This document shows, one piece after another, positions 5,133-52,917 of a stretch of 64,000 nt of DNA. The notes beneath the pieces are model-generated. The model did no database searches. It saw only the letters and a program-made list of their open reading frames with translations, and was not told the DNA's origin. This DNA is from an archaeon UBA543 (GTDB lineage Archaea > Undinarchaeota > Undinarchaeia > Undinarchaeales > UBA543), in NCBI GenBank assembly GCA_002502135.1, contig DAPM01000017.1, forward strand, positions 5,548 to 69,547, in the 5' to 3' direction. Numbering within the stretch: position 1 is the stretch's first letter; each line of letters starts with the position of its first letter. A program made the translations under genes and the position numbers.

Positions 5133-5798
5133 TTGTTCAAAATGGGACTAGTGATTTTAAATTTCAAGGCGTATGAAGAAGCAACAGGCTCTAAAGCAGA
5201 GGAACTCTCAAAAATCTGCAAAGAGACAGCTGAAGCAACAGGAGCTCGGATTATAGTGGCTCCGCAAACAGCAGATATTCTAAGAACTTCTCCATTAATT
5301 GAGACTATTGCACAGTCTGCAAGTTCTATAAAACCAGGATCTGGCACAGGTTCTAATCTTGTTGAATCTCTGAAACAAGCTGGAGCAGTTGGCTCAATTC
5401 TGAACCACTCAGAACACAGAATTCCGCACATGCAGATTTCTGAAACAGTTCTGAGACTAAAAGAAGCTGGAATGATTAGTGTTGTCTGTGCTCAGGACGA
5501 TGAAGAAGCCAAGGCTTTGGCAGAATTCGCTCCAGATTACATTGCAGTTGAGCCTCCAGAACTAATTGGCTCAGGTGTTTCAGTATCACAATCAAAACCA
5601 GAAGTAGTTACCAAAACAGTTGAAAATATAAAACAGGTTAATCCTGATGTTAAGGTACTCTGCGGTGCAGGAATCTCAAACGGATCTGATGTGAAAAAAG
5701 CATTGGAACTTGGTGTTGATGGTGTTCTGCTTGCAAGCGCTTTCACAAAAGCAGCTGACCCAAGGGCAGTGCTTCTGGATATTTGTGGTGGATTATAA
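5133..5798 (+). CDS. tpiA: Triosephosphate isomerase (archaeal short type)
   Basis: 221 aa, the typical archaeal TIM length. Motifs NFKAY, SEHR and GAGIS... are present. Its stop overlaps the pgk start (TAATG). Confidence 0.85.
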   Translation: MFKMGLVILNFKAYEEATGSKAEELSKICKETAEATGARIIVAPQTADILRTSPLIETIAQSASSIKPGSGTGSNLVESLKQAGAVGSILNHSEHRIPHMQISETVLRLKEAGMISVVCAQDDEEAKALAEFAPDYIAVEPPELIGSGVSVSQSKPEVVTKTVENIKQVNPDVKVLCGAGISNGSDVKKALELGVDGVLLASAFTKAADPRAVLLDICGGL

Positions 5799-13437: not shown

Positions 13438-14199
13438 ATGATAAACCCGGTCAGATCTATTTATAGAAGAGTGGTCTCAATTCCACATATCTTATTTCCA
13501 AAAAAGCTAAACACGATGCCTTATTTCCAGAGAATGAAACTCTTCTACAAACTCGAGCGAGTTCACTGGAACATCAGGTGCTATCACAAAAGGAGTCACA
13601 TAGTACCGTTTATCAAATGGCTTATTGAAAATCCTGAGATCGGGGGCTCTATTATTGAAGCAGGATGCGGACAGGGCGGAAGTACAACTAAACTCAGCAT
13701 TATCGCCAAAATGCTTAACAAGAAACTAATAGTTTTTGACAGTTTCCAAGGTCTTCCACATGGAAGCGACGAAGTTAAAAACATTCTTGGAAATCCTGCA
13801 GAGAAATTCAAAACTGGAAATTTCGCAACTCCACTTAAACAAGTCAAAGAAAACATTTCAAAATACGGAGAACTTGGCCAGTGCAAATTTGTTGAAGGCT
13901 GGTTCAAGGACACTCTGCCCTCTTTTAACGAAACCATCTGCGCAGCATATATTGATGTTGATCTCCCATCCAGCACAGCAACTTGTATCAAATATCTGTT
14001 CCCACATCTCTCTGAACATGGGCTTTTCTATTCACAAGATGGTGATTACCCTTCTGTTCTCGCAACCTTCTTATCAACAGATATATGGCATGACATCCAA
14101 TATAATGTTCCTAAAATCCGCCATCTTGGAAGCAAATTAAAAATCATCTGGATTGAAAGAACAATTCCAAGCGCTAGGCAAAAGCATAATCTTTATTAA
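13438..14199 (+). CDS. TylF/MycF-like SAM-dependent O-methyltransferase
   Basis: 253 aa. GSIIEAGCGQGGST...FDSFQGLP...GWFKDTLP matches the macrocin-O-methyltransferase family layout. It sits immediately upstream of the aglB pair. Confidence 0.55.
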   Translation: MINPVRSIYRRVVSIPHILFPKKLNTMPYFQRMKLFYKLERVHWNIRCYHKRSHIVPFIKWLIENPEIGGSIIEAGCGQGGSTTKLSIIAKMLNKKLIVFDSFQGLPHGSDEVKNILGNPAEKFKTGNFATPLKQVKENISKYGELGQCKFVEGWFKDTLPSFNETICAAYIDVDLPSSTATCIKYLFPHLSEHGLFYSQDGDYPSVLATFLSTDIWHDIQYNVPKIRHLGSKLKIIWIERTIPSARQKHNLY

Positions 14200-14224
14200 T
14201 ACCTGTTTTCAACCAGTGTGCATG
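14180..14224 (+). promoter_or_regulatory. Putative archaeal TATA promoter for aglB copy 1; member of a duplicated 45-nt upstream sequence
   Basis: AAAAGCATAATCTTTATTAATACCTGTTTTCAACCAGTGTGCATG is near-identical to 16442..16486. The TTTATTAATA box is centred ~27 nt before the ATG, which implies a leaderless mRNA. Confidence 0.5.
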
Positions 14225-16441: not shown

Positions 16442-16486
16442 AAAAGCATAATCTTTATTAATACCAGTTTTCAACCAATGTCTATG
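16442..16486 (+). promoter_or_regulatory. Putative TATA promoter for aglB copy 2 (duplicate of 14180..14224)
   Basis: AAAAGCATAATCTTTATTAATACCAGTTTTCAACCAATGTCTATG has the same TATA box and spacing. Confidence 0.5.
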
Positions 16487-33059: not shown

Positions 33060-34091
33060 GTGTGTTTTAATAACATGGCACGATTTTCACACGAAATTGG
33101 ACAGTCTTTTAGGTCTCTGCTGACATCTAGAGGCAAAGGCCTAGATTGGGCTTACAGGAAGTATCGCTACTTATGGAAGCGTGCACCTGCGAAGCAGAAA
33201 GTGCTGAAATTCCCACTTCACTTGGATATTGAAAACACCAACAACTGCAATCTTCGCTGTGTAATGTGCGCTATTAATTTTGCTGAAGAGGCTTTCGGAT
33301 CAATGGATTGGAACCTCTACACAAAGATTATTGACGAGGGTGCAAAGAACGGACTGGCATCTATCAAGCTCAACTGGCGCGGAGAACCACTTCTTCATCC
33401 AAAAATTGTTGAAATGGTGAAATATGCAAAAGATAAGGGAATTGTTGAAGTGCAGTTCAACACCAATGCTCAGCTTTTAACAGAAGACTTATCTCGCAGA
33501 TTAATTGACGCAGGTCTGGACAGGATTATTTTCTCAGTAGACGGAGCTACAACCGAAACTTACGAGAAAATAAGACGTGGCGGTAAATACGACAGACTTG
33601 TTAATAATATTGAAACTTTCCTAAGACTCAAAAAAGAAAAAGGAACCAAACTTCCTCTTACAAGAATACAATTTGTGAAAATGAAAGAGAACGAGAACGA
33701 AGCTGACTTGTTCAAGAAAACTTGGGATGGGAAAATTGATGAAGTGATTGTTAATCCATTCCTTGATTACACTTCCCTCAGCGACACAGCTGAGAAACAG
33801 GACAATCTAAAATCTTCCGACCAAATTAAAATAACTGGAAGAAAGCCATGTAACCAGCTTTGGCAGAGATTAATAATCAGTTATGATGGTGAAGTGATGA
33901 TGTGTTGTGATGACTGGAACATGGAAGTTAAACTCGGAAATGTTAATAATCAGAATATTTACGATATCTGGCATGGTGAAAAGCTGAACAAAATCCGCAA
34001 GCTTCATGCAACTGGCCAATGGGACAATATTCCTGTTTGCAAAAACTGTACAGAACTTGACGGATGTACTTACGAGAAAAATGAAAATTAG
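33060..34091 (+). CDS. Radical SAM enzyme with C-terminal SPASM domain
   Basis: 343 aa. NTNNCNLRCVMCA (CxxxCxxC), then C-terminal CNQLW...MMCCDDW...CKNCTELDGC auxiliary-cluster cysteines. Confidence 0.75.
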   Translation: MCFNNMARFSHEIGQSFRSLLTSRGKGLDWAYRKYRYLWKRAPAKQKVLKFPLHLDIENTNNCNLRCVMCAINFAEEAFGSMDWNLYTKIIDEGAKNGLASIKLNWRGEPLLHPKIVEMVKYAKDKGIVEVQFNTNAQLLTEDLSRRLIDAGLDRIIFSVDGATTETYEKIRRGGKYDRLVNNIETFLRLKKEKGTKLPLTRIQFVKMKENENEADLFKKTWDGKIDEVIVNPFLDYTSLSDTAEKQDNLKSSDQIKITGRKPCNQLWQRLIISYDGEVMMCCDDWNMEVKLGNVNNQNIYDIWHGEKLNKIRKLHATGQWDNIPVCKNCTELDGCTYEKNEN

Positions 34092-35373
34092 CAAATTAAT
34101 TGAAGAATCATACCTTTTGAATCGGGTTTTTGTATCTGATGATTTAGTAAAAGCTCTGGACAACCTATCTGCTCACACTGATGTTGAATTTAAGGATTAC
34201 AAATTCAAAACAGGCACTGATGTTAATGGTTTTGTAATTCCTAGCAAATGGAGTGTTGATGATGCAAAGATTTTGAAAGATGGTAAAGTTGTTTATGATG
34301 GAATGCAGCATGTTCTTTGTGTTATTGCAAATTCAGCAAGCTTTGAAGGAAAAGTTTCCAAAGAAGAGCTTGTAAAACATCTACACACTGCTCCAAAACA
34401 GCCAAAAGCAATTCCATTCCACTTCAGGCAGATGTACAGACCTTGGCAGGAAGATTGGGGATTCTGTATGCCACAGGAATTATTTGATTCTCTAGAAGAT
34501 GGCGAATATGAAGTTGTTCTAAAAACAAAATCAGAACCTGGAGAAATGGTAATGCGAGAATTCACTTTGCCTGGAAAATCAAAGGAAACAGTTCTTTTTG
34601 TTGCTCATATTGATCATCCAGGACTTTCAAATGATGATTTGTCTGGTTGTTCTGTCGGAATTGCGCTTTTAGAAGAGCTCAAGAAACTGAAAGATCGCAA
34701 ATACACTTACAAACTTCTGCTTACTCAGGAAATAATCGGCTCAGTTTTTTACTTGAATGCAATTAAACAAGCGAAAAAGGATCTGAAATATTCATTATTC
34801 ATTGAAATGTTCGGAAACAGTACAGATTTGGCTTTACAGAAGTCTTTTTCAGGAGAAACTGAAATTGACAAAGCCTGCGAATTAGTTCTGCAGGGAATAG
34901 TGAAAGAACCTGTAATAAAACCTTTTAGAGAGCATGTTGGCAACGATGAAATTGCTTTTGAAGCTCCTGGTTTTGAAATTCCAATGCCTTCAATTTCAAG
35001 ATGGCCTTATCCTGAATATCACACTAATCTGGAGAACATGGATTTGATTGATGAGGACAAATTGCAGGAAGCTTTGAAGTATTTGCTCGATGTTGTGAAT
35101 GTTTTGGAGAAAAATGCTATTGTCAAGAGAAAATTTGAAGGATTAGTTGGTCTTGCCAATCCAAAATACGATTTGTATATGGGTCCTGGTCAGATTCTGA
35201 GCACAAGCGAGAAAGGGGACAAGCTGAAATGTCTGTTCCAGTACAAAATGCCTCGTTATCTTGAAGGCGACAAAACTGTTTTGGACATAGCTCTAGAATT
35301 CGGACTTGATTTTAACTGGACTCACGATTATTTCTGTAAAATGGCTGAGAAAGATTTAGTTGAACTTCTTTAA
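34081..35373 (+). CDS. Zinc-aminopeptidase-fold (M28/DUF4910-like) protein
   Basis: Track ORF 34006; the likely start is MKISKLIEE at 34081, overlapping the radical-SAM stop. VAHIDHPGLSNDDLSGCSVGIALLEEL resembles the metal-binding core of M28-like domains. The assignment is tentative. Confidence 0.4.
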   Translation: MKISKLIEESYLLNRVFVSDDLVKALDNLSAHTDVEFKDYKFKTGTDVNGFVIPSKWSVDDAKILKDGKVVYDGMQHVLCVIANSASFEGKVSKEELVKHLHTAPKQPKAIPFHFRQMYRPWQEDWGFCMPQELFDSLEDGEYEVVLKTKSEPGEMVMREFTLPGKSKETVLFVAHIDHPGLSNDDLSGCSVGIALLEELKKLKDRKYTYKLLLTQEIIGSVFYLNAIKQAKKDLKYSLFIEMFGNSTDLALQKSFSGETEIDKACELVLQGIVKEPVIKPFREHVGNDEIAFEAPGFEIPMPSISRWPYPEYHTNLENMDLIDEDKLQEALKYLLDVVNVLEKNAIVKRKFEGLVGLANPKYDLYMGPGQILSTSEKGDKLKCLFQYKMPRYLEGDKTVLDIALEFGLDFNWTHDYFCKMAEKDLVELL

Positions 35374-36347: not shown

Positions 36348-37028
36348 TTAATAGCTCCTCATGTCTTCGATAATTTTACCGTGTTTTTCCAAAAGGTACT
36401 TTTTCGCTTCTTCAACCTTTGTTTTATCCCCGGTTATGCTATCAGGTCTCCTGTTATAGGTAAATAAAGGTTCTGAAACATGGATACTCGTGCATTTTTC
36501 CTGGGCTTTTATGATAATGTCGTACTCTGGAAGCACAATAGCTTCATCATATGGGCCTGCGTCTTGTAAAACACTTTTTTTGTACAAAATACCGCCTGCA
36601 ATTGTGTCCATTAGGTTATCAACAGTGACAGTTTTCACTTCCTCTCTTGTTTTCTCAAAATAATCACAATAAGAGAATCCCAAATCAGGATCTGTTTCAA
36701 ATGGTTTGTATAATTTCTCTAATGCAGTTGGTTCCAACCAATCGTCAGAGTCCAGAATTATGATAAAGTCGCCTGTTGCAGTATCAATTCCCTGATTCAA
36801 GGCTTTGATAGCACCCAAATGCGCATTTTTGATAACTACAACATTCCCTTGTGCGTTTGCAAAGGTGTCTAGAAGCTCTTGGGTGTTATCTGTAGAACCA
36901 TCATCAACACAAATCAATTCAATTTGCTCTTTTGTCAGAGTTTGTGCTGCCACGCTATCTAGTGCTTTCTGAACAAAAGCTGAACTATTGTAAGTTCTTA
37001 GAATGATGCTAATTTTTCCTAATTCCAT
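36348..37028 (-). CDS. Family-2 glycosyltransferase (short)
   Basis: 226 aa. ISIILRTYNSSAFV...VDDGSTD...LDSDD. Confidence 0.7.
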   Translation of the reverse strand: MELGKISIILRTYNSSAFVQKALDSVAAQTLTKEQIELICVDDGSTDNTQELLDTFANAQGNVVVIKNAHLGAIKALNQGIDTATGDFIIILDSDDWLEPTALEKLYKPFETDPDLGFSYCDYFEKTREEVKTVTVDNLMDTIAGGILYKKSVLQDAGPYDEAIVLPEYDIIIKAQEKCTSIHVSEPLFTYNRRPDSITGDKTKVEEAKKYLLEKHGKIIEDMRSY

Positions 37029-37759
37029 GTTCGTGCTGTACCTGCTGGTATATTTTCATTCAAAGCCTTAATTTCTGGATTTGCATCAAGCCATTTCAAA
37101 ACATCTTTCAGCTTGACAAAATTACCATCCTGAACCAAAGCATCGTAACTTCGCCTTGCAACAATCAAATCTTCTGGATTATCAACTGTCAGTCTGACTT
37201 CAGGTCGTCTTAATTCCTCATCTACTTGCTGCATCTGAATCTTGAATTTGTCAGGATTCTCATTAATGTAAAGTGAGATCAGTTCGCTCCTGTGTTTGTC
37301 CTCGCCATCTTGGTGTGATTTCCTAAGTGCATCCATTGTTATAATTTCCACGTGAGTTCCTACTGGAATATTCTCGCAAACTGCAAGAGATGCTTTCTCA
37401 TCCAAAAGTTTCTGATACATCTCATCAACTTTTTCAACATAAATGTAAGGGTTCTCAGTAGTGCTTCTCAGAATAACATCAGCTTCAACCAAGTCTCCGC
37501 CTTTTATCAGTCGTCCAAGAACATCTTTCTCATTTCCATAAACATAAGGAATGTTGTGTTCTTTTGCTAGAAGTTCGAAATGAACATTCTCCTGACCTTC
37601 GCTAATTGCAAAAACAATTTCATCAATTGATTTACATTGCTCTCTGATCCTGTCAACAACATGCATAACTATTGGCTTTCCGCCAACAAGCTGTAACGGC
37701 TTAGCATAAAGTCGTGTTGATTTATTTCTGCAAGCTAATACTGCAACAAATTTTGTCAT
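37019..37759 (-). CDS. Acylneuraminate/pseudaminate-type cytidylyltransferase (CTP_transf_3, NeuA/SpsF/PseF-like)
   Basis: 246 aa. VAVLACRNKSTRLYAKPL is the N-x-x-S-T-R-L nucleotide-binding motif of CMP-ulosonic acid synthetases. Confidence 0.65.
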   Translation of the reverse strand: MTKFVAVLACRNKSTRLYAKPLQLVGGKPIVMHVVDRIREQCKSIDEIVFAISEGQENVHFELLAKEHNIPYVYGNEKDVLGRLIKGGDLVEADVILRSTTENPYIYVEKVDEMYQKLLDEKASLAVCENIPVGTHVEIITMDALRKSHQDGEDKHRSELISLYINENPDKFKIQMQQVDEELRRPEVRLTVDNPEDLIVARRSYDALVQDGNFVKLKDVLKWLDANPEIKALNENIPAGTARTWN

Positions 37760-38790
37760 TTTAACATATCCTCCACAATAACTTCATTTTTTGGAACGTC
37801 CCTTGCTGCTGTTTTTCCAACAACTTCCTCTACTCGCAGGAAGGGCAAGTCTTTTTCAACTCTTTTGAGATGAATATCATCAATTTTAATTTCGTCTCCA
37901 GCTTTCAGGTCTTTCTGAGCTAGAATGTGCTTTCTTACAAGTTTTCTGTACTCTTTCTCGCCGTCATTCAGAACATATTCTTTGCTTCCCAAACTCTTCT
38001 CAACTCTTCGCACATATTCCACGAACTTTTTGAACTCATCAGGATTCAAGGATGACTGGTAATCCACTCCTTTCTGGCTTCTGTCCCAAGTAATGTGCTT
38101 TTCCATTATCACTGCATTCATTCCCATTGGCATAAGTGGATATGGAACTGCAAGCTCATCATCACCATCAAGATGTCCCGCATAACCTACAGGCAATCCG
38201 AACTTCTCTTGAATCATTCTAATCCGCTCAAGATTTGTGTCCTCTAATTTTGTAGGGAAGTTCTGGAACCCGTGCATGATTGCGATTTCAGTTGCTCCAT
38301 ATTCCTTTGCTTTAGCAACAGCGTACTCTGCATCATCTAAGCTTGCGCCACCAACGTAAAGGAACACTGGTTTTCCTGTTTCAGCAACTTTTTTGATTAA
38401 AATTGAGTTTGTAATATCTGAGGAATGGATTTCATAAGCATCCAGATTGAATTGTTCCATATCTGCAAGGCTGGTTTCGCCAAAAACATCTGCAAAGACC
38501 ATTAATCCAAGATCTTTTGCATATTCAACAAGTCCTTTCCATTCATCAATTGGCATTTCACACTTTTTCAGAATTTCATAATATGAATATCCCGGTACTG
38601 AAATCTCATCTGCAAGAATTCTTTGCACTTTGACTGCATTAGCTCCGCCATCTGCAGAAGCTTTAATTATCTTTTTGGCAATTTCCACATTCCCGTCATG
38701 AGCATTTGCCATTTCTGCAATAACAAGTGTGTTCCTGCTATTGAATTCCTCTCCTTTGATTGTTATTTTCGGATTGTACATTCTTCCCAC
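37756..38790 (-). CDS. N-acetylneuraminate / nonulosonic acid synthase (NeuB/PseI/LegI family)
   Basis: 344 aa. NeuB TIM-barrel (IAEMANAHDG...GANAVKVQ) plus a C-terminal SAF/antifreeze-like domain. Confidence 0.8.
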   Translation of the reverse strand: MGRMYNPKITIKGEEFNSRNTLVIAEMANAHDGNVEIAKKIIKASADGGANAVKVQRILADEISVPGYSYYEILKKCEMPIDEWKGLVEYAKDLGLMVFADVFGETSLADMEQFNLDAYEIHSSDITNSILIKKVAETGKPVFLYVGGASLDDAEYAVAKAKEYGATEIAIMHGFQNFPTKLEDTNLERIRMIQEKFGLPVGYAGHLDGDDELAVPYPLMPMGMNAVIMEKHITWDRSQKGVDYQSSLNPDEFKKFVEYVRRVEKSLGSKEYVLNDGEKEYRKLVRKHILAQKDLKAGDEIKIDDIHLKRVEKDLPFLRVEEVVGKTAARDVPKNEVIVEDMLK

Positions 38791-40686: not shown

Positions 40687-41381
40687 TTCTTTTTCTTTAG
40701 GAAGTCACTTCTAACAGATCTGTGCTGCATAATGAAATATGCAAACCAATACAGGTTGCCTACAACAGCCAGGCCCCATAACACCAGGTAAAGCTGGTTT
40801 AGCAGAGCCCCAACAGCAATAATGTTAATGTGCCACTGCCTTGCATAGAAGAATAGATTGTACCATTTCCCAAACCCGCTAAATTTCTTTTTAACTACTT
40901 TGTGTGGGATTTGGTTCAAGGTATAAAATCTTGCTGTGACATAAAATACTGTGAAGAAGTAAAGGCTGGCAAGTCCGAGAATCCAGATGTGAGTTACTGG
41001 ATAAATTCTGTATGCGCCAATTGTAATTGCAATTATCAGAAGTGGATCGAGTATTAAGTCAAGTGCCGAATCAAGATATCCGCCGTAATAGCTGGATTCT
41101 TTCCTGCATCTTGCAAGTTCGCCATCACAAAGATCAAGAATGTATCCGAATTCAAGCAGAACAGCTCCCCAGATCAGACATTTCCAAACTCCTGTTGTGA
41201 AAAGAGCAGCTCCTGCCATGCAAAACAAGAAACCGATAACAGTAACCTGATTTCCAGTAAGCGAAGTATGATTGTAAAGGAATGGAGTTATCCTTCTTGA
41301 GATTTTCCTGTGAACCCAATGAGTTATTAACTGGTCATTCTCCCTGTCAGGAACATCTTTTGTAGTGATTTTCTTTTTCAT
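40683..41381 (-). CDS. CDP-alcohol phosphatidyltransferase-family membrane enzyme
   Basis: 232 aa. DLCDGELARCRKESSYYGGYLDSALDLILD matches the D-G-x2-A-R-x8-G-x3-D-x3-D signature. Confidence 0.75.
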   Translation of the reverse strand: MKKKITTKDVPDRENDQLITHWVHRKISRRITPFLYNHTSLTGNQVTVIGFLFCMAGAALFTTGVWKCLIWGAVLLEFGYILDLCDGELARCRKESSYYGGYLDSALDLILDPLLIIAITIGAYRIYPVTHIWILGLASLYFFTVFYVTARFYTLNQIPHKVVKKKFSGFGKWYNLFFYARQWHINIIAVGALLNQLYLVLWGLAVVGNLYWFAYFIMQHRSVRSDFLKKKK

Positions 41382-42097
41382 TTGAGTAGTTTAGGATAAA
41401 TTTCGTTTTTAGCTTTTTCCAAATCATCTGGAAAGTCGATTTCAATCCACGGAAGTTTGTCAGTTGGCACAATTTTTATTGGAAATCCTTTTTCTGCAAG
41501 ATTTGTCAGTGCTGAAGTGTCGTAATCCATGAATCTGCCTTCTGCAAGTAGTGATTCAATTTCTGGAATTAGTTTTTTCCAGCCTTCTGAACTGAATTTG
41601 ATAATTCCAGTCCATTCTCCGCCTGCTTGGTCAAGTGGAATTGCCTTACTGGATTCAATTAAGTGTCCTTTCTCATCCAATTTGACTTTCATTGACTCTT
41701 CATCAAAAACTTCAGTGTCTGTAACAAGAACAATATCTCCCTCAGCGTCAATCGCTTTTTTTATTAGCTCATCGTGGTAGAGCAGGTCGCTGTGCAAGTA
41801 AAGAAACGGCTCGTCTCCTACTGCTTCTTTTCCGAACCAGAGCGAAGCCATGTCATTTGTAGTTTCGTAAAATGGATTGAACAGGTGAGTTACAGAATCT
41901 CCAAGTTTCTCATGAATTTTCTCTTTTTTCCAGCCACTAACAATTGCAATATCTGTAATTCCGTGCTTTTTCAGATTTTCAAGAGTGAGATCGAGAAGTG
42001 TTTTTCCTTCAGCAACTTCTGTAAGGCATTTCGGAATCTCAGAATCATTCCCGTATAACCGGGTTCCGCGCCCTGCTGCAACAATTACTGCTTTCAT
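41378..42097 (-). CDS. Nucleotidyltransferase (NTP_transf_3-like; candidate phosphonate- or alcohol-phosphate cytidylyltransferase)
   Basis: 239 aa. The N-terminus is MKAVIVAAGRGTRL. It overlaps both neighbours by 4 nt, consistent with an operon. Confidence 0.7.
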   Translation of the reverse strand: MKAVIVAAGRGTRLYGNDSEIPKCLTEVAEGKTLLDLTLENLKKHGITDIAIVSGWKKEKIHEKLGDSVTHLFNPFYETTNDMASLWFGKEAVGDEPFLYLHSDLLYHDELIKKAIDAEGDIVLVTDTEVFDEESMKVKLDEKGHLIESSKAIPLDQAGGEWTGIIKFSSEGWKKLIPEIESLLAEGRFMDYDTSALTNLAEKGFPIKIVPTDKLPWIEIDFPDDLEKAKNEIYPKLLK

Positions 42098-43047
42098 TCT
42101 AGTATTTTCTTGAAAATGTTAATCAAGTCCTCCTTTGAAACTTCTTTTGGATTATTATCAAGATGCCTTTTGTCTGGGAACACAACTTCTGCAAGTTCTT
42201 CAGCTGTTCCTGTAATCTCCACATTTCCTAGTCCTGTTTCTGTAATAATGCTTTTAATCTCTTGTGAAAGCGCAGGATCTGTTCCATTAAAGTCCATTGC
42301 GTGCGGAAGAACAATTGCAATTGCCTCTCCATGTGGAATTCCCTGGTTTGAGAGTGGATAAGAGAGTGCATGCGCAAGAGTTGTTCCAGAATTGCCGAAA
42401 GCTTTTCCAGCAACCAGACTTGCGTAAGACATCTGCTCTTTTGCCAATTCGTCACCTTCAATTGCTTTCTTGAGATTAATTTTGATTATGTCAATTGCTT
42501 CTTTTGCCAGTGTCTTGGTTGTTTCATCACTCTTTTTTGATTCAGAACATTCAACTGCATGAGCTAGAGCATCAATTCCTGTGCAGGCTGCGAGCTTCTT
42601 CGGCATTGTAAATGTGAGCTCAGGATCCACTAGCGCAACATCAGGAAGAAGGTTTTCGTTTTTAATTCCCTTTTTCTTGCCTTCCACTTTCAGGACAGCA
42701 TCATGGGTTACTTCACTTCCAGTTCCTGCAGTTGTTGGGATCATAATTTTCTTTGCATTTAGCTCCATTGCAGCGTATTTTGCAACATCCAAAACAGACC
42801 CTCCACCTAGTCCAATAATTGTGTCAGCCCCAAGTGCTTTAACTTTCTCAACAGTTTCCATACTTGGTTCTGGTTCTACATCTGAGAAGATTTTGATTTC
42901 ACCTAGAAGTGTTTTGATTTTGTCAACTGGTCCGCGTGTTAGCATACCTTTAGAAGTAACTAGAAGAACAGCGCCTTCTGTAAATTCAGGCAGTTTGCTG
43001 ATTGCTCCTCTTTCGAATATTATGTGCTCCGGCAGTATCAATTCCAT
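42094..43047 (-). CDS. Iron-containing (group III) alcohol dehydrogenase superfamily; candidate phosphonoacetaldehyde reductase
   Basis: 317 aa. The GLGGGSVLDVAKYAA NAD-binding motif and the His-rich metal-site region (AHAVEC...) are present. Confidence 0.65.
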   Translation of the reverse strand: MELILPEHIIFERGAISKLPEFTEGAVLLVTSKGMLTRGPVDKIKTLLGEIKIFSDVEPEPSMETVEKVKALGADTIIGLGGGSVLDVAKYAAMELNAKKIMIPTTAGTGSEVTHDAVLKVEGKKKGIKNENLLPDVALVDPELTFTMPKKLAACTGIDALAHAVECSESKKSDETTKTLAKEAIDIIKINLKKAIEGDELAKEQMSYASLVAGKAFGNSGTTLAHALSYPLSNQGIPHGEAIAIVLPHAMDFNGTDPALSQEIKSIITETGLGNVEITGTAEELAEVVFPDKRHLDNNPKEVSKEDLINIFKKILE

Positions 43048-43152: not shown

Positions 43153-43629
43153 ATGGTTAATACAAGTGAGTTTCTCGCTAAACTTTCAGAACTTGGATAC
43201 AATTTCTACGCTGGAGTACCTTGCTCTATTTTCAAAACTCTAATCAGCCAGCTAGAATCTGGAGATAATTACACACCAGTTACTCGAGAGGATGAAGGTC
43301 TTGGATTATGCACAGGGGCTCAGCTAGCTGGAAAGAAGCCTGTAATGGTTATGCAGAATTCCGGTCTTGGAAATTCAATTAATGTTCTGTCTTCACTGCT
43401 TCTACTCTACAAAATCCCGACACTCATGCTGATCAGCTGGAGGGGCGAGACAAAAGAGGATGCTCCTGAGCATTGGGTAATGGGAGAATCAATGACTAAA
43501 CTGCTTGATTCAATTGGTGTTCCGTATTTTATTTTTGAAACACTTGAGGATATGGAAAAAGCTAATGCAAAACTGACTGAAACAAACCAGCCAGTTGCAG
43601 TTATTTTCAAAAAGGGGTCACTTGAATGA
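43153..43629 (+). CDS. Phosphonopyruvate (or sulfopyruvate) decarboxylase, alpha subunit (TPP enzyme, PYR domain)
   Basis: 158 aa. The pattern is like split Ppd/ComD N-terminal halves. Its stop overlaps the start of the beta subunit. Confidence 0.7.
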   Translation: MVNTSEFLAKLSELGYNFYAGVPCSIFKTLISQLESGDNYTPVTREDEGLGLCTGAQLAGKKPVMVMQNSGLGNSINVLSSLLLLYKIPTLMLISWRGETKEDAPEHWVMGESMTKLLDSIGVPYFIFETLEDMEKANAKLTETNQPVAVIFKKGSLE

Positions 43630-44174
43630 AAACACAAGAAGCAGTTGCAAAAATAGTATCTCTTTTGAAAGGGGATGAAGTTATTATTTCTGCTAATGGT
43701 TTTATTTCACGAGAACTTCACGACACTGGCGACAATGAGCGGAATTTCTATATGATTGGCTCAATGGGAATGGGTGCATCAATTGGAGCTGGAATTGCAC
43801 TGAATTCTCAAAAGAAAGTGGTTGTTCTGGATGGCGACGGGAATGTTCTGATGAATCTGGGTGCGCTGGCTACAATTGGCAATAAAAAACCTGAGAATTT
43901 CCTTCATATTGTAATTGACAATGGTGTTTACGAATCAACTGGCTCTCAGAAAACTGTTTCTGCAACAATTGAGCTGGAAAATGTTGCAAAATCAGCTGGA
44001 TACACTACTTGTGTTAAAGTTTCTAATCTTGAAGAACTGGAATCAGCAATTGTCAGCGAGTACACTGGTTCGGTTTTCATTCGAGTAATAGTTGAAGCAG
44101 GCAAAAGAGAAGTTGGCAGAGTGCAGGCAAGCCCGGAAGAAATTGCAAACCGGCTCAGAACTTACCTTCCATAA
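43626..44174 (+). CDS. Phosphonopyruvate (or sulfopyruvate) decarboxylase, beta subunit (TPP-binding)
   Basis: 182 aa. LDGDGNVLMNLGALATIG...IVIDNG is the G-D-G...N-N TPP-binding motif. Confidence 0.75.
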   Translation: MKTQEAVAKIVSLLKGDEVIISANGFISRELHDTGDNERNFYMIGSMGMGASIGAGIALNSQKKVVVLDGDGNVLMNLGALATIGNKKPENFLHIVIDNGVYESTGSQKTVSATIELENVAKSAGYTTCVKVSNLEELESAIVSEYTGSVFIRVIVEAGKREVGRVQASPEEIANRLRTYLP

Positions 44175-44207: not shown

Positions 44208-45830
44208 ATGACCAAGGCTAAAAAGCTCAGAGAACTGTTTGAAAGCAAGGATCTTGTACGGATCGTTGGAGCTCACAATGGACTAACTGCAAAACTTGTA
44301 GAGCTGAACGGTTTTGATGGTGTATGGGCTTCTGGTTTAGAAGTTTCAGCATCCAACGCTGTTCCTGATGCTAATATTCTCACAATGTCTGATTATCTTG
44401 CAGCAGCAGCCAGCATGAATGATGCTACAAGCATTCCAGTTGTTGTGGACTGCGATACTGGATACGGCAATTCAATGAATGTAATCCGAATGGTGAAGAA
44501 ATTCGAGGATGCCGGAATTGCTGCTGTTTGCATGGAGGACAAGAAATTCCCAAAAACCAACAGTTTGCTTGAAGGCGGGAAACAGGAGCTGGCTCCAATT
44601 GCTGAGTTTGTTGGCAAGATAATGGCTGCTAAGAATGCTCAGGAGTCAGATGATTTTATGGTTATTGCTCGTGTTGAGGCTTTGATTGCTGGCTGGGGAC
44701 AGGAAGAAGCACTCAAAAGAGCTCGCGCTTATGCTGATGCAGGCGCTGATGCAATTTTTATTCACTCAAAAAAGTCTGATCCTAAAGAAATTGAGGATTT
44801 CCTCAAAGCTTGGGACAATTACAAACCAGTTGTGTTGGTTCCAACAAATTATCCTAGCTTCACAGAAGCTCAGATGAAGCAGTATGGTGTGAAACTTGTT
44901 ATTTATGCTAATCACGGAATCCGGACAATTGTAAAACACGTTAATGAAACTCTTGCAGAAATTAAGGAAAAAGGGATTACTGAAATTGATTCTAAAATCG
45001 CTAGCGTGAAAGACCTTTTTGCTTTGCAGGAAATGGATAAATTCAAGGAAGATCAGGACAAGTTTGTCAGAACAAAAGAATCTGTAAAAGCAATTATTCC
45101 AGCTGCTGGGGACAGAAGCGTTGAACCTAGTTTGAAAGAACTTCTACAGGACAGACCACTTACAATGATTGATGTTAATGGAAAGTCAATTCTGCAGAGA
45201 AGTGTTGAGAATCTGAAGCAGTGCGGTGTTGATGACATCAAAGTTATTGGCGGTTACAAGGCAGAGCATGTTGTTGCTGATGATATTAATCTAGTTGTGA
45301 ATGAGGCATATGCTGACGGGCATATTATGGATTCAATTTCAAAAGCTGGAGAGGAATATGCTGAAAAGAATCTGATAATCTACTCTGACATTATTTTCGA
45401 AACAGAAATTCTTGATAAATTGCTAAAAACTGACAAGGATATTACACTTGTAATTGACAGTTCTGTTAGAAAGTCTGAAGTCAGGTCTGATATTGATCTT
45501 GTAATTGCTGAAAAGCCTCCTTTGGACGGCGAGAGAGTGATTAATGTTAATAAAGAGAATAAAATTCTGAACATTGGAAAGGATTTGGACAGAGAGAAGG
45601 CAAAACACGAGTTTGTTGGAATAGTTCTGCTTTCAAAAATTGGAATGCAGAAGCTGATGCAGGTTTACAAGGATGCTGGAGATCAGAAAATGGGTCTCTG
45701 CACTGCGATTCAGAAGCTTATTGATTCTGGTGAGGCTGTTAATTCACTTGAAATCAGCAGAGGGTGGAGTGAAATTCACGATTTTGAAGATTATAAGAAA
45801 GTTTCTGAGATGTTGGCTACTGAAAATTAA
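44208..45830 (+). CDS. Phosphoenolpyruvate phosphomutase (PepM) fused to a C-terminal nucleotidyltransferase domain
   Basis: 540 aa. The N-terminal ~290 aa belong to the ICL/PEP-mutase superfamily and carry the PepM-diagnostic EDKKFPKTNS (EDKX5NS). The C-terminal ~230 aa are AIIPAAGDRS...IDVNGKSIL, an NTP-transferase fold. Confidence 0.85.
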   Translation: MTKAKKLRELFESKDLVRIVGAHNGLTAKLVELNGFDGVWASGLEVSASNAVPDANILTMSDYLAAAASMNDATSIPVVVDCDTGYGNSMNVIRMVKKFEDAGIAAVCMEDKKFPKTNSLLEGGKQELAPIAEFVGKIMAAKNAQESDDFMVIARVEALIAGWGQEEALKRARAYADAGADAIFIHSKKSDPKEIEDFLKAWDNYKPVVLVPTNYPSFTEAQMKQYGVKLVIYANHGIRTIVKHVNETLAEIKEKGITEIDSKIASVKDLFALQEMDKFKEDQDKFVRTKESVKAIIPAAGDRSVEPSLKELLQDRPLTMIDVNGKSILQRSVENLKQCGVDDIKVIGGYKAEHVVADDINLVVNEAYADGHIMDSISKAGEEYAEKNLIIYSDIIFETEILDKLLKTDKDITLVIDSSVRKSEVRSDIDLVIAEKPPLDGERVINVNKENKILNIGKDLDREKAKHEFVGIVLLSKIGMQKLMQVYKDAGDQKMGLCTAIQKLIDSGEAVNSLEISRGWSEIHDFEDYKKVSEMLATEN

Positions 45831-46972
45831 AGCAATTTCTCAGCTGCTTCAACAATTTTTCTAGGTTCTAATTCAACAAGGCACTTCCTGTCCTTGCAAT
45901 TAAAATAATTAGCAGTAAAAGAATCAACACAAGGAATACAAGCCAAGTCTTTTTTCACAACAATAACTTTCTCACCATAAGGTTTTGCTTTTTCAGAATC
46001 TGTAGGACCGAAAATACTAACTACTGGAATTCCAAGTGCTGCTGCAAGATGCCCAGGCCCAGTATCTGTGCTAATGAAAATATCACAATTCTTAATCAAA
46101 GCAGCTGTTTCTGGAATAGTTTTGTCAAAGAACATCAACGGTTTCTCTTGCATCATTGCGTGAATACTCTTGCCAGCATGAGCTTCTTCTGGCCCACCAA
46201 CTATCATAATCTTTGTATTATGCTTCTTGGCAAGTTCAGTACATGCTTCTGCAAAGCCATGCTGAGTCCACTGTTTGTATTTGGTTTCATGAACTGAGCC
46301 GGTGTGCACGCCAATAAGTTTCTGACCTTCACCAAGTCCTCTGGATTTCAGAAGGTTTCGAGCACCATATACTTTAGCGTCTGGCAATTCAAGTTTAATA
46401 CTTCTGTCAATTTCTTTTTCACCAAGCATTTTAGCAATATCCAAATTCACATCAACACAGTGCTTGCTAGTGCTTTTAACAACAATATTTGAGAAAACTC
46501 CTGATTTGAAGAACCCGACGTTCTGCTCAACTCCAATCATTTTCTTTGCTCCAATGAATTTTGTAGCTACCCCGCTGAACTTTCCGCTTGGGTATGTTAG
46601 AATTGAAAGATCGAATTTTCTTTTTCCAAGTTCTTTCATGAATTTTCTTTTCTTGAAAATCCCTCTATGCTCTTCTGGATTGAAGAAAACAATATCGTCC
46701 ACTAGTTTGTTTGCCTGCATTAATTCAACAACTGGTTTGTATGAAGCAAGCAGAGTGATTTTTGCAGTTGGAAACCTTTTTCTTAAAGTTTTGAGCAAAG
46801 GAATTGAAAAAATCATATTTCCCAAGCCCATCAGGTTTACAACAACAATATTCTGAAAATTCTCATCAACTGGTCTGCTTCTTGCAAATAACAAATCCCA
46901 CGGAATCAAGAATTTCAAGGCTAGTATGTTCTCAAACATTCTAACATGCAAAGGAATTTTTATTTTAGACAT
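45827..46972 (-). CDS. GT9 family heptosyltransferase-like glycosyltransferase
   Basis: 381 aa. IVVVNLMGLGNMIFSIPLLKTLRKRFP is the GT9 N-terminal motif. C-terminal HTGS...GGPEE... GT-B half is also present. Confidence 0.7.
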   Translation of the reverse strand: MSKIKIPLHVRMFENILALKFLIPWDLLFARSRPVDENFQNIVVVNLMGLGNMIFSIPLLKTLRKRFPTAKITLLASYKPVVELMQANKLVDDIVFFNPEEHRGIFKKRKFMKELGKRKFDLSILTYPSGKFSGVATKFIGAKKMIGVEQNVGFFKSGVFSNIVVKSTSKHCVDVNLDIAKMLGEKEIDRSIKLELPDAKVYGARNLLKSRGLGEGQKLIGVHTGSVHETKYKQWTQHGFAEACTELAKKHNTKIMIVGGPEEAHAGKSIHAMMQEKPLMFFDKTIPETAALIKNCDIFISTDTGPGHLAAALGIPVVSIFGPTDSEKAKPYGEKVIVVKKDLACIPCVDSFTANYFNCKDRKCLVELEPRKIVEAAEKLL

Positions 46973-46973
46973 T

Positions 46974-47432
46974 TTAAAGTTTTGAAATTATGTCTGTTGT
47001 TGAATCACAATCAACTAACTTCAATATTTCCAGTCTTCCGCCATATTCTTCTAAAGCTTTTTTCTCAGGAACTTGTTCTGGGGTATAATCTCCGCCTTTA
47101 GCTTGGATTCCTGGTTTCAGCTCGCGGATAAGCTGTTCTGGAGTGTTTTCATCATAAATCACAACATAATCCACGCTTTCTAGGGAATCAAGCACTTCAG
47201 CTCGCTGATCCTGCTGAATTAATGGTCGTTTCTCACCTTTCAACTTTTTAACTGATGCATCGCTGTTCAGTCCAACAATCAGAACATCTCCGAGTTCTCT
47301 GGCTTCTTTCAAATAGCGAATATGACCAATATGCAGAATATCAAAACAACCATTAGTGAAAACTACTGTTTTCCCTGCTGTTTTCAGCTGGTCTACAGTC
47401 TGTTTTGCATCTTCTCTTGACAAAACACTCAT
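46974..47432 (-). CDS. D-beta-D-heptose-1-phosphate adenylyltransferase (HldE domain II / RfaE2-like)
   Basis: 152 aa. TNGCFDILHIGHIRYL...IVGLNSD...KGGDY...CDSTTDIISK is collinear with the E. coli HldE C-terminal domain. Confidence 0.8.
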   Translation of the reverse strand: MSVLSREDAKQTVDQLKTAGKTVVFTNGCFDILHIGHIRYLKEARELGDVLIVGLNSDASVKKLKGEKRPLIQQDQRAEVLDSLESVDYVVIYDENTPEQLIRELKPGIQAKGGDYTPEQVPEKKALEEYGGRLEILKLVDCDSTTDIISKL

Positions 47433-48349
47433 TTTAGAGCCTCCCTCAGGTCGATTTTGTGAACGCGCCTCTTCCCAATAACAAAACCAGCTGCTTTGTT
47501 AGCCAGTTTTGCAGATTCAAGATCATTTATTCCAGATGCAAGAGCAACAGCAAGCACTGCAGCAACAGTATCTCCAGCTCCTGTAACATCATAAACCTCT
47601 TTAGCTTCTACTGGAATTTGTTCTGCAGTTCCATTTGAAACAAGCATCATTCCTTCTGCTCCCATTGTCATCAAAACTTTGCAGTTCAGCTTTTCTGAAA
47701 GTGTTTTTCCGATTTCTTCAGAAGTGCTGTTCTCAGAATTAACAATTTCTCTGGATTCTTTTAAGTTCGGAGTAATAATTTCAACTCCTTTGAAAATTTC
47801 AGCATTAACTGGTTTTGGATCCACAAGCACTTTCTTTCCAGTTTGCTTTGCAGCTTCCACAATTTTATCAGTCATAACACCTTTTGCATAATCTGAAAGA
47901 ACAATTATGCTGGCGTCTCCTGCTTTTTCTGAAATAGCAGATATGATTTTATCCTCATCCTCTTCACTGATTTTGTCTTTTTTTTCAGTATCAATTCTGA
48001 GCAACTGCTCTAACTCACTAGTTACAATCCTTTTCTTAACAGTTGTAGGACGGTTTTTGTCAATTATAATTGAGTCAGCCGTTATTCCGCTGGATTTGAT
48101 AAGTTCTGCAAGCTCTTTGCCTTCTGAATCATCACCAATAACACCAACCAGCTCTGCTTTTGCTCCAAGCTCAACAATATTTTTTGCAACATTTGCAGCT
48201 CCGCCAAGAACATCCTTTATTTTCTCTTTGTTAAAAACCGGTACAGGAGCTTCTGGTGAAATCCTACTTGCATCTCCAATAACATATCTGTCCAGCATTA
48301 AGTCTCCAATAATAAGTACTTTGACTGATTCTGGTTTCAGCTCGCTCAT
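47429..48349 (-). CDS. D-beta-D-heptose-7-phosphate kinase (HldE domain I / RfaE1-like, PfkB family)
   Basis: 306 aa. IIGDLMLDRYVIGDASRISPEAPVPV...GGAANVAKN matches HldE domain I. C-terminal DVTGAGDT is the PfkB motif. Confidence 0.75.
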   Translation of the reverse strand: MSELKPESVKVLIIGDLMLDRYVIGDASRISPEAPVPVFNKEKIKDVLGGAANVAKNIVELGAKAELVGVIGDDSEGKELAELIKSSGITADSIIIDKNRPTTVKKRIVTSELEQLLRIDTEKKDKISEEDEDKIISAISEKAGDASIIVLSDYAKGVMTDKIVEAAKQTGKKVLVDPKPVNAEIFKGVEIITPNLKESREIVNSENSTSEEIGKTLSEKLNCKVLMTMGAEGMMLVSNGTAEQIPVEAKEVYDVTGAGDTVAAVLAVALASGINDLESAKLANKAAGFVIGKRRVHKIDLREALK

Positions 48350-48888
48350 TCAAGCGCCTCGCAAATTTCATGAAGTATGAAAGCGTGCATTTCTTGAATT
48401 CGTGGAACCTGATCTGATTGCACCTGAATACCAAGATCGCATTCTCCAGCAAGTGTTCCGACATTTCCTGTCAATGCAATTGTCTTTATTCCAAGTGATT
48501 TTGCTTTCTGAGCAGCTTTAACAACATTCTCAGAAGTTCCGCTTGTGCTAATCACAATTAAAACATCTCCTTGCTTGCCTAGAGCTTCAACCTGCCTCTC
48601 AAAAACTTTGTCATAACCATAATCATTGGAAATTGCTGTCATAACAGCAGTGTTAGCATTAAGAGAAATTCCTTCAAGGGGCTTCCTGTCGCTTTTGTAC
48701 TTGCAAACCAGTTCTGCAATAAAATGGTTAGCATCAGAAGCAGATCCGCCATTACCGCAAGCAAGAACTTTGTGCCCAGCCAGGTGGCACTCTTTAATTG
48801 CATTTACTGCATTCTGCACCTGATCTTTCAGGCCAATAGCGCTTCGCGCCAGGCTTGCTAAATTTTCTGCTCGCTCTTCAAATGTCAT
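48346..48888 (-). CDS. gmhA: Sedoheptulose-7-phosphate isomerase GmhA (SIS), copy 2
   Basis: 180 aa. LACGNGGSASDANHF...ISTSGTSENV. Confidence 0.8.
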   Translation of the reverse strand: MTFEERAENLASLARSAIGLKDQVQNAVNAIKECHLAGHKVLACGNGGSASDANHFIAELVCKYKSDRKPLEGISLNANTAVMTAISNDYGYDKVFERQVEALGKQGDVLIVISTSGTSENVVKAAQKAKSLGIKTIALTGNVGTLAGECDLGIQVQSDQVPRIQEMHAFILHEICEALE

Positions 48889-52305: not shown

Positions 52306-52917
52306 ATGCGTGAAATCAGGTTTTCAATAAAACATAAGGGAAGCTGGTCTTTAGAAGCAGTTGCGGACTTCTTTGATGTGAAGGCTAGTCTAATTGGAAA
52401 TAACTTGTGGAAGTTTGAAGCCAAAGATGAGAGACAGATTGCGGACTTTCTAAAATTCTTTCAGAATCACAGATCTGTTGATGCTTCAAAACTCGTTTTC
52501 CAGCAGGGAAAGTTTGCAGTTGTTCACGAGAAATCAGGTTCTGAAATCCGCAATCTAATTTCCAAACACAATTGCCACGCAGGTTCGAACATGTCAGTAG
52601 CAAATGGTTTTGAGAACTGGGTTGTTTTTGCAGAGAATTCACAGGATGCAACCAATTTGATGAAAGACTTGAACAAGCTTGGCGAAGTTATTGTTGATAA
52701 AATGGGGAAATATGATCCAAATAAGAGCCAATTCCAGCTTACTGACAAGCAATTACATTCAATAAATCTGGCTGTTGCTTATGGTTACTACAACTGGCCT
52801 CGCAAAGTAACTCTAGAAGAGCTAGCAACTGTCCGAAAAGTTTCCAGACGCACTTATCAGGACCATCTGAGAAAAGCTGAAGAGAAAATTCTTAGGAAAA
52901 TTGTTGAAGAACTCTAA
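52306..52917 (+). CDS. Putative transcriptional regulator with C-terminal HTH_10 (bacterio-opsin-activator-type) domain
   Basis: 203 aa. The C-terminus NWPRKVTLEELATVRKVSRRTYQDHLRKAEEKILRK matches the archaeal HTH_10 pattern. An ATATAAAT box lies ~30 nt upstream. Confidence 0.5.
   Translation: MREIRFSIKHKGSWSLEAVADFFDVKASLIGNNLWKFEAKDERQIADFLKFFQNHRSVDASKLVFQQGKFAVVHEKSGSEIRNLISKHNCHAGSNMSVANGFENWVVFAENSQDATNLMKDLNKLGEVIVDKMGKYDPNKSQFQLTDKQLHSINLAVAYGYYNWPRKVTLEELATVRKVSRRTYQDHLRKAEEKILRKIVEEL

Follow-up and report, generated by a model that had tools for sequence, protein, structure and literature searches.

Phosphoenolpyruvate (PEP) mutases, referred to as Ppm or PepM, are frequently found as fusions to nucleotidyltransferase-type domains. 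In an inventory of 1485 Ppm proteins 33% are fused to a domain of Pfam family PF12804, 23.6% to a domain of family PF01467 and 2.9% to both, the first family being exemplified by LicC and the second by the cytidylyltransferase (CyTase) domain of Fom1 (Rice et al., 2019; Nat Commun 10:3698; PMC6697681). Clusters that encode a Ppm-fused and, nearby, a free nucleotidyltransferase are already contained in Fig. 3c of the same study, and one Ppm-fused plus one free nucleotidyltransferase are also described for the 'Burkholderiales_CDP-OH' group (Li and Horsman, 2022). In the literature such fused domains are given the name PntCs. Active members of the family carry the signature GXG(T/S)RX4-8PK, and in Tde-PntC of T. 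denticola Arg15 of this signature holds the pyrophosphate leaving group while Lys25 stabilizes the transition state; R15A and K25A variants retain less than 10% of the activity, and the equivalent Lys-to-Ala change abolishes activity of FrbH and YgbP (Rice et al., 2019; PMC6697681). Here we describe a PEP mutase fusion protein of 540 residues, encoded in a stretch of 64,000 nucleotides (the window) from the archaeon UBA543 of the Undinarchaeota (contig DAPM01000017.1), in which the C-terminal PF12804 domain has lost the Arg and the Lys of this signature. The architecture of the protein and the loss of the motif are near certain.

The gene belongs to the already catalogued Ppm-PF12804 fusion class, the layout of which is published and very common. 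The new part is the signature loss in the PepM-fused domains, of which no report was found in the literature searched. A sequence-only reading of the window had taken the protein for a fusion with the domain order reversed relative to Fom1. Fom1 of Streptomyces wedmorensis, the pathway of which passes via 2-hydroxyethylphosphonate (2-HEP) and CMP-HEP, likewise consists of a PEP mutase fused to a nucleotidyltransferase-family domain, but its CyTase is N-terminal and belongs to PF01467 rather than PF12804, and a Pfam scan of the window's fusion protein gave no match to PF01467. The comparison fails because the two domains belong to different Pfam families; the window protein is a fusion independent of Fom1, and as a PepM-PF12804 fusion it represents the commonest Ppm fusion of all. 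PF12804 fusions occur in both orders, the protein P0199 having the nucleotidyltransferase domain first and PepM second, and PepM is placed first in all colinear relatives found in genome databases, as in the window.

The signature loop of the fused domain

In the window protein the loop of the fused domain reads IIPAAGDRSVEPSLKELLQDRPLTMIDVNGK and does not conform to GXG(T/S)RX4-8PK (AAGDRSVEPSL). Ser308 stands at the position of the catalytic Arg and Leu318 at the position of the catalytic Lys (P317-L318 for 'PK'), and the loop is 2–5 residues longer than the canonical one. Hidden Markov model (HMM) alignments to LicC, ST0452 and Tde-PntC put the Arg and Lys columns opposite S308 and L318, and an hhalign comparison of the fused domains with 25 free canonical nucleotidyltransferases (probability 100%, E 2.7e-68, 250 columns) places the invariant R13 of the free enzymes opposite S308, K23 opposite L318 and G11 opposite a variable column, the loop carrying an insertion of 3 residues. 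The canonical Arg column falls on Ser308 by hhalign and HMMER and on Val305 by hmmalign, Arg being conserved in the family at neither. Column counts in 120 homologues gave Ser at position 308 in 99 and Leu, Val, Ile or Thr at position 318 in 116 (54, 37, 17 and 8, respectively), Lys being absent from these four commonest residues. Position 303, an Arg in the window, is variable (Pro, Val, Lys or Asp), and a conserved basic residue is found at no position of the loop. Moreover, the PF12804 match on the fusion protein starts at profile position 18, past the signature, in agreement with its being missing. The sequence-only reading had named a C-terminal domain devoid of catalytic residues as an observation that would speak against it, and at the sequence level this is the case.

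What is retained is the remainder of a nucleotidyltransferase. AlphaFold2 models the C-terminal domain alone with a mean predicted local distance difference test (pLDDT) score of 93.0 and a predicted template modelling (pTM) score of 0.91, and the best Foldseek match of the domain in the PDB is PntC-AEPT (6PD2, E 1.3e-14, TM 0.76), followed by LicC (1JYK, E 4.4e-14, TM 0.69) and by the inositol-1-phosphate cytidylyltransferase IPCT (4JD0). The predicted fold is thus the full PntC/LicC-type nucleotidyltransferase fold, in common with the N-terminal domain of T. denticola Tde1415 (Tde-PntC, 6PD1/6PD2) and with S. pneumoniae LicC. Shared with these two enzymes are also the metal-binding Asp and Glu and conserved Gly, Asn and Ser positions of the core. 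Asp394 and Glu522 stand opposite two acids that are invariant in the free nucleotidyltransferases, D104 and E219 (hhalign), and are the candidate ligands of the metal site. Asp394 furthermore aligns with Asp106 of Tde-PntC, two residues past Glu104, and is invariant in all three groups of domains compared (20/20, 58/58 and 47/47); Glu522 is kept in 19/20 domains of the window's subtype, and the 'GWxEI' segment that holds it aligns with the 'YEID' segment of LicC, an enzyme in which Glu216 coordinates metal (Rice et al., 2019). G349, N365 and S376 are conserved across fused and free domains. Differences from Tde-PntC and LicC are, besides Ser308, Leu318 and the longer loop, a Tyr at position 392, which in all fused subtypes stands for the amine-contacting acid (Glu104 in PntC, Asp105 in LicC). 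Opposite D221, a nearly invariant Asp of the free enzymes, the fused domain has His524. Mean identity to the window protein across archaeal and bacterial phyla is 43% for the fused domain as compared with 65% for the PepM domain. Since a mean identity of 43% is maintained across phyla and nine positions are invariant (G301, G349, S376, D394, E468, G471, G519, W520, Y529), the fused domain is conserved and not decaying.

The fusion itself is real. Its gene is a single open reading frame (ORF) that starts with ATG and runs uninterrupted through 540 codons to the stop, and within this one ORF both PF13714 (PEP_mutase, aa 7–252, E 1.3e-59) and PF12804 (NTP_transf_3, aa 320–408, 35.6 bits with a cutoff of 27) exceed the Pfam gathering thresholds, which places the protein in the Ppm-PF12804 class. 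The string AAGDRS...VNGKSIL, by which the sequence-only reading had located its C-terminal nucleotidyltransferase domain, corresponds to aa 299–329. AlphaFold2 with 119 homologues gave for the whole protein a mean pLDDT of 92.6 and two confidently modelled domains with the boundary at aa 287–292: according to DSSP residues 276–286 form the final helix of PepM and residues 293–299 the strand with which the second domain begins, and pLDDT falls to 69 in the block 281–290. The pTM of the full-length model is 0.66, suggesting that the mutual orientation of the two domains is uncertain. Could two adjoining genes have been merged through a frameshift or an assembly error, as the sequence-only reading had also considered? 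Gene calls on at least 8 contigs that derive from independent marine samples (Tara, Logan, ENA, NCBI) give exactly this protein of 540 aa, and because it recurs in this way the fusion is no artefact. In addition, of the 120 cluster representatives that match best, 118 are colinear with the fusion (533–602 aa, 95–100% query coverage), and the survey for the same architecture yielded 590 confirmed fusion loci in species-representative genomes, spanning Planctomycetota, Chloroflexota, Omnitrophota, Nitrospirota, Burkholderiales, Nostoc, Streptomyces and Woesearchaeota. With hundreds of colinear homologues across many phyla, a short linker and a confident two-domain model, the probability of merged genes is negligible.

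The PepM domain is catalytically complete. Residues 110–119 (EDKKFPKTNS) conform to the Ppm-specific motif EDKXXXXXNS, the fusion protein scores 321.1 bits with the NCBIfam PEP mutase equivalog TIGR02320 (cutoff 319.55) and matches the solved PEP mutases 5UNC and 1M1B with E values of 2e-96 and 4e-86, and residues D54, D81, D83, E110, D111, K112, N118, S119 and R155 are invariant in 119 homologues.

Signature loss among PepM-fused relatives

How general is the loss of the signature? In a sample of 80 loci from named genomes, which comprise 78 PepM-fused domains and 47 free nucleotidyltransferase-like ORFs, the residues were counted by alignment column. The full G/G/R/K pattern is found in 0/78 PepM-fused domains as compared with 43/47 free nucleotidyltransferases from the same loci; three further free proteins read GSRK, by which 46/47 keep both Arg and Lys, and the Lys column of 'PK' is likewise K in 46/47. 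A search with the C-terminal domain only gave 590 representatives at 50% identity (E<=1e-10), to which the presence of PepM was assigned by a PepM HMM; here a canonical signature is found in 1/47 proteins with PepM upstream versus 38/66 without PepM. The catalytic motif is retained where the partner is a GT2, sulfatase, phosphodiesterase or methyltransferase domain. The loss is thus restricted to PepM-fused copies, and it differs in extent between their subtypes: the window's subtype reads 'IIPAAGxxxxxxSL..P[LVI]xMLD' with neither Arg nor Lys, whereas the Lys is kept in two other fused subtypes, one with the sequence 'AAGFExxL..PK', the other with 'AASRGxxL..PK' or 'AAS--QGSL..PK'.

The relatives show a variety of domain partners. 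P0123 combines APS kinase, PepM and a nucleotidyltransferase-like domain from which Arg and Lys are absent, while P0199, with its inverted order, keeps both. Further partners are cupin and HTH_31 (P0201), type I phosphodiesterase (P0180), sulfatase (P0223, N-terminal of the nucleotidyltransferase), GT2 (P0176, also N-terminal) and methyltransferase (P0237), and those non-PepM fusions in which the loop was inspected keep the catalytic Arg and Lys. P0176 and P0223, both with a canonical motif, had been considered as PepM fusions and were rejected, as Pfam shows GT2 plus nucleotidyltransferase and sulfatase plus nucleotidyltransferase.

In most cases a second, canonical enzyme is encoded near the fusion. 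Of the loci of the window's subtype that have at least 4 kb of sequence on both flanks, 9/12 contain a free PF12804 enzyme with the canonical signature, as do 26/41 loci of the other subtypes, the median distance to the fusion being 805 bp. A tenth locus of the window's subtype, L014, encodes a free PF01467 enzyme; free PF01467 cytidylyltransferases were sought in the loci with two phmmer queries of limited sensitivity, and L014 was the only one in which one was found.

Proposed role of the fused domain

The free nucleotidyltransferase that the sequence-only reading had placed 2 kb from the fusion is confirmed (PF00483/PF12804), as is the CDP-alcohol transferase of the module (PF01066). The former has the signature AAGRGTRLYGNDSEIPKC, that is a full GXG(T/S)R...PK. 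Among solved proteins it matches Tde-PntC best (6PD1, E 9.6e-14 over aa 2–238), in the alignment to which R13, K23 and D104 correspond to R15, K25 and D106. By these residues the true PntC-like protein of the window would be the free nucleotidyltransferase and not the fused domain, and the free enzyme is the most likely maker of the CMP-phosphonate. Opposite Glu104 of Tde-PntC, which contacts the amine (Asp105 in LicC), the free enzyme has His102, and among the free nucleotidyltransferases beside PepM fusions the equivalent position is Asp in 28, Glu in 8, His in 7 and Tyr in 3. A His at this place would agree better with a substrate that carries a hydroxyl than with one that carries an amino group, and the position may mark the preference for 2-HEP versus 2-aminoethylphosphonate (2-AEP). 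The genes for the free nucleotidyltransferase and for the CDP-alcohol transferase overlap by 4 bp, the same adjacent pair is found in the Planctomycetia locus L019, and loci L003 and L009 hold homologues of both. The best NCBIfam model for both proteins is IPCT/DIPPS (for the transferase, its transferase half), with 67 and 70 bits versus a cutoff of 580. The proposal that one of two nucleotidyltransferases makes the donor for the CDP-alcohol transferase is therefore plausible for the free enzyme, given the 4-bp overlap and the L019 pair; the proposal that two nucleotidyltransferases signify two activated intermediates is not supported, as the fused domain is without the signature Arg and Lys.

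The following pathway could be imagined. The PepM domain would convert PEP to phosphonopyruvate, which the split decarboxylase encoded upstream would pull to phosphonoacetaldehyde. A putative iron-dependent alcohol dehydrogenase (Fe-ADH) would reduce phosphonoacetaldehyde to 2-HEP, the free PntC-like enzyme would form CMP-HEP from CTP and 2-HEP, and the CDP-alcohol phosphotransferase would attach the phosphonyl group to an alcohol of lipid or glycan type. In this scheme the fused domain would not perform the canonical CTP-dependent activation. It would rather bind a nucleotide or the CMP-phosphonate product and act as a regulatory or scaffolding module on the PEP mutase, similar to GMPPA, the non-catalytic paralogue of the nucleotidyltransferase GMPPB, which it controls and whose product GDP-mannose it binds (PMC11228364). 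We infer the non-activating character of the fused domain from the replacement of the pyrophosphate-binding Arg and the transition-state Lys by Ser308 and Leu318 and from the lengthened Gly loop, and the substrates of the pathway are likewise assigned by inference. On balance we consider this overall picture probable, and a ligand-binding or regulatory module seems more likely, by analogy, than a second activating enzyme. As a tentative possibility, the proposal may be put in its strongest form: C-terminal PF12804 domains of PepM proteins would be pseudo-enzymes and not cytidylyltransferases, with the metal-binding acids and the core of the fold retained and the pyrophosphate site lost, and by sensing CMP-phosphonate (or CTP/CMP) they would control the first committed step on the way to the C-P bond.

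Several points weigh against a non-activating, regulatory fused domain and against parts of the pathway. Both metal acids and the core are kept, as they would be in an active enzyme with a remodelled pyrophosphate site. The lengthened loop contains at least one Lys or Arg in 116/119 homologues (R303 and K310 in the window) that could substitute for the lost residues. Other fused subtypes keep the Lys and carry an Arg in 'AASRG', and the fused lineage overall may not be inactive. In 2/12 well-flanked loci of the window's subtype no separate cytidylyltransferase was found within 8 kb. The Fe-ADH scores 145.7 bits with TIGR03405 (Phn_Fe-ADH), under the cutoff, and the assignment of 2-HEP rests on context. 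The regulatory role is drawn by analogy. The PntCs characterized in the literature searched are free or fused to AEPT, and an activity assay on a PF12804 domain fused to Ppm was not found there.

The first four of these points also count in favour of two active nucleotidyltransferases with different intermediates, as the sequence-only reading had suggested, the fused one making a transient NMP-phosphonate for tailoring as in the Fom1 pathway and the free one the donor for the CDP-alcohol transferase. Such a division of labour would also agree with the strong conservation of the fused domain and its constant attachment to PepM, with the PntC label of the literature and with B12-radical SAM genes that adjoin the fusion in L014 and L019 and might need a nucleotide-linked substrate like Fom3. 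The same two loci, however, also hold a separate cytidylyltransferase (PF01467 in L014, PF12804 in L019), the Fom1 domain comes from a different family, and throughout the window's subtype Arg and Lys are replaced by Ser and by Leu, Val or Ile, at positions where Ala cripples characterized relatives. We therefore regard two active nucleotidyltransferases as unlikely, though as the alternative to be taken most seriously. A further thought is that the fused domain catalyses a reaction without a pyrophosphate leaving group, such as hydrolysis or transfer of a CMP-phosphonate or some nucleotide-dependent handling of phosphonopyruvate. The losses cluster in the loop for the triphosphate and pyrophosphate (the equivalents of G11, R13 and K23) while metal ligands and residues on the substrate side are invariant, and Tyr392 in place of the amine-binding Asp or Glu in all fused subtypes suggests a different ligand; the His opposite D221 of the free enzymes could point either way. 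To our knowledge there is no precedent for a nucleotidyltransferase fold that performs such a pyrophosphate-free reaction, and we consider this chemistry improbable. Still less probable is a structural relic that serves solubility or oligomerization and binds no ligand: the signature is degenerate in the PepM-fused copies examined and the domain evolves faster than PepM, but D394, E468, G471, W520 and E522, the candidate ligand contacts, are invariant or nearly so, and a pure scaffold needs none of them. A regulatory, ligand-binding module thus remains the reading that we prefer.

The loss of Arg and Lys calls into question whether PF12804 domains fused to Ppm function as PntC cytidylyltransferases, as has been assumed, and for about one third of PEP mutases one may ask whether the fused domain senses a product or serves as a scaffold, or instead works as a non-canonical enzyme. 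If the sensing proposal were true, a GMPPA-like feedback device would be built into the enzyme of about one third of PEP mutases, and published counts of 'nucleotidyl activation' in phosphonate clusters would be inflated by such domains.

The phosphonate module, its surroundings and known systems

The features of the window are collected in Table 1. Directly upstream of the fusion the phosphonopyruvate decarboxylase (Ppd) is split into two genes, which match TIGR03297 (Ppyr-DeCO2ase) with 119.5 bits in the N-half and 191.6 bits in the C-half; they also match the models for the alpha and beta subunits of sulfopyruvate decarboxylase, and PF02775 was found. Ppd homologues are present in 17/19 loci of the window's subtype. 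The candidate phosphonoacetaldehyde reductase has 317 aa as compared with about 375 aa for the Fe-ADH homologues in L014 and L019 and matches the C-terminal Pfam domain partially. A truncated pseudogene was considered and rejected, as orthologues of the same short form align end-to-end (46–48% identity) and adjoin PepM fusions in the Chloroflexota loci L004 and L006, which marks a subfamily. On the minus strand the Fe-ADH gene is followed by those for the free nucleotidyltransferase, the CDP-alcohol phosphotransferase, a 614-aa TagF/GT-like protein, NeuB, a CTP_transf_3 protein that is CMP-sugar synthetase-like, a GT2 protein and an epimerase. Since no MpnS- or HepD-like ORF was found in 35–50 kb of the window, the likely end phosphonate is 2-HEP, at which the cassette, judged from its context, appears to stop. 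In the literature searched nothing relevant was found on phosphonate synthesis in Undinarchaeota or DPANN.

Table 1. Positions of the features discussed, in coordinates of the window (strand + or -)
Feature	Position	Strand	Basis or remark
PEP mutase + PntC/LicC-fold nucleotidyltransferase-like fusion, 540 aa	44208..45830	+	Pfam, NCBIfam, AlphaFold2
PEP mutase domain, aa 1-286	44208..45065	+	PF13714, TIGR02320, PDB matches, invariant residues
EDKKFPKTNS motif, aa 110-119	44535..44564	+	Ppm-specific motif
Linker, about 6 residues, aa 287-292 (RTKESV)	45066..45083	+	DSSP on model; pLDDT dip
C-terminal domain of predicted nucleotidyltransferase fold, PntC/LicC type, aa 293-540	45084..45827	+	PF12804, Foldseek, hhalign
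Degenerate signature loop, aa 299-318, AAGDRSVEPSLKELLQDRPL	45102..45161	+	column counts, profile alignments
Asp394, retained candidate metal ligand	45387..45389	+	alignments to Tde-PntC, free nucleotidyltransferases
Glu522, partner of Asp394	45771..45773	+	alignments to free nucleotidyltransferases, LicC
Split phosphonopyruvate decarboxylase	43153..44174 (alpha 43153..43629, beta 43626..44174; 4-bp overlap)	+	directly upstream of fusion
Short-form Fe-ADH, candidate phosphonoacetaldehyde reductase	42094..43047	-	PF00465, PF25137; divergent from Ppd-PepM genes
Free PntC-like nucleotidyltransferase, 239 aa, AAGRGTRL...IPKC	41378..42097	-	PF00483/PF12804
CDP-alcohol phosphotransferase-family membrane protein, 232 aa	40683..41381	-	PF01066 E 1.7e-11
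NeuB-type nonulosonic acid synthase	37756..38790	-	
CTP_transf_3 cytidylyltransferase	37019..37759	-	
GT9 heptosyltransferase	45827..46972	-	
RfaE domain II adenylyltransferase	46974..47432	-	TIGR02199 204.7 bits, above cutoff
RfaE domain I kinase	47429..48349	-	
GmhA-like SIS protein	48346..48888	-	
771-aa protein (nucleotidyltransferase, B12-binding, radical SAM)	19698..22013	+	
Radical SAM/SPASM protein, then DUF4910/DUF2172/M28-like protein	33060..34091, then 34006..35373	+	
Two tandem STT3/AglB-type oligosaccharyltransferases	14153..16435 and 16478..18697	+	
HTH_10 regulator	52306..52917	+	
Phosphoglycerate kinase (PGK)	5783..7021	+	87% identical to Candidatus Undinarchaeales PGK

Related loci show how the module is assembled elsewhere. 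L019 encodes in a row the PepM fusion with its nucleotidyltransferase-like domain, a B12-radical SAM protein, Ppd, Fe-ADH, a second B12-radical SAM protein, a free nucleotidyltransferase and a CDP-alcohol transferase. In L014, a locus from a metagenome-assembled genome of the Omnitrophota, the PepM fusion of the window's subtype is surrounded by three B12-radical SAM genes, Ppd and Fe-ADH, and the free PF01467 protein (5805..6239 of that locus, plus strand) is of the type of the Fom1 CyTase, a layout that corresponds to a fosfomycin-like early pathway (Fom1/Fom2/FomC/Fom3 logic) in an uncultured genome. The window itself contains a 771-aa protein that combines a canonical nucleotidyltransferase domain (LAGGLATRMRPVTETIPK) with B12-binding and radical SAM domains. 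Its radical SAM part has the Sden_1168/PhpK P-methyltransferase families as nearest models (304 bits, below cutoff), and homologues of this part (29–34% identity, E 1e-71 to 1e-93) directly adjoin PepM fusions in L014, L019 and L036, with further homologues in L003. Since they adjoin PepM fusions, the 771-aa protein could be a Fom3-like tailoring enzyme that acts on a nucleotide-linked phosphonate. Its nucleotidyltransferase part is nearest to sugar-1-phosphate nucleotidyltransferases (Arch_glmU, MurU), HddC matching as well, and the gene heads a heptose-like operon with an HddA-like kinase, a SIS protein, a HAD protein and a transaldolase.

The window carries the tandem STT3/AglB-type oligosaccharyltransferases, an HTH_10 regulator and a PGK that is 87% identical to one labelled Candidatus Undinarchaeales, and its proteins were recovered from a mesopelagic Tara fraction of 0.1–0.22 µm; the host is therefore a DPANN (Undinarchaeota-like) archaeon of the marine mesopelagic. 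The window is largely a surface-glycan island, at least 50 kb of it being given to surface-glycan genes. Adjoining the phosphonate module, the nonulosonic acid synthase gene lies beside that of the CTP_transf_3 cytidylyltransferase, and these neighbours suggest that the phosphonate may decorate a sialic-acid-like sugar. Immediately downstream of the fusion follows an ADP-heptose set of the bacterial lipopolysaccharide type (45827..48888), in an apparently archaeal genome. The pair of a radical SAM/SPASM protein and a DUF4910/DUF2172/M28-like protein completes the features recorded.

Among the closest known systems are the Ppm-PF12804 class and its Burkholderiales_CDP-OH clusters, which, like the window, encode a PEP mutase that has the EDKXXXXXNS motif and is fused to an NTP transferase domain of the MobA-like type, with another, free nucleotidyltransferase and genes of the CDP-alcohol or phospholipid type nearby. 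Copies of the Burkholderia type, however, read 'AASRGxxL...PK' with the Lys kept, whereas the window's subtype is without both Arg and Lys; the window has an Fe-ADH in place of the 2-AEP transaminase of these clusters, and its host is a DPANN archaeon. For the pair of free nucleotidyltransferase and CDP-alcohol transferase the IPCT/DIPPS protein of A. fulgidus (4MND) offers a parallel, as it also couples a cytidylyltransferase of similar fold to a CDP-alcohol phosphotransferase, but in one polypeptide instead of two overlapping genes, and the context in the window implies a phosphonate and not inositol phosphate. For the proposed role of the fused domain the analogue is GMPPA, which combines an inactive nucleotidyltransferase fold with binding of the product and regulation of the pathway; unlike the fused domain, GMPPA is a eukaryotic protein, a separate subunit and part of a sugar-nucleotide pathway.

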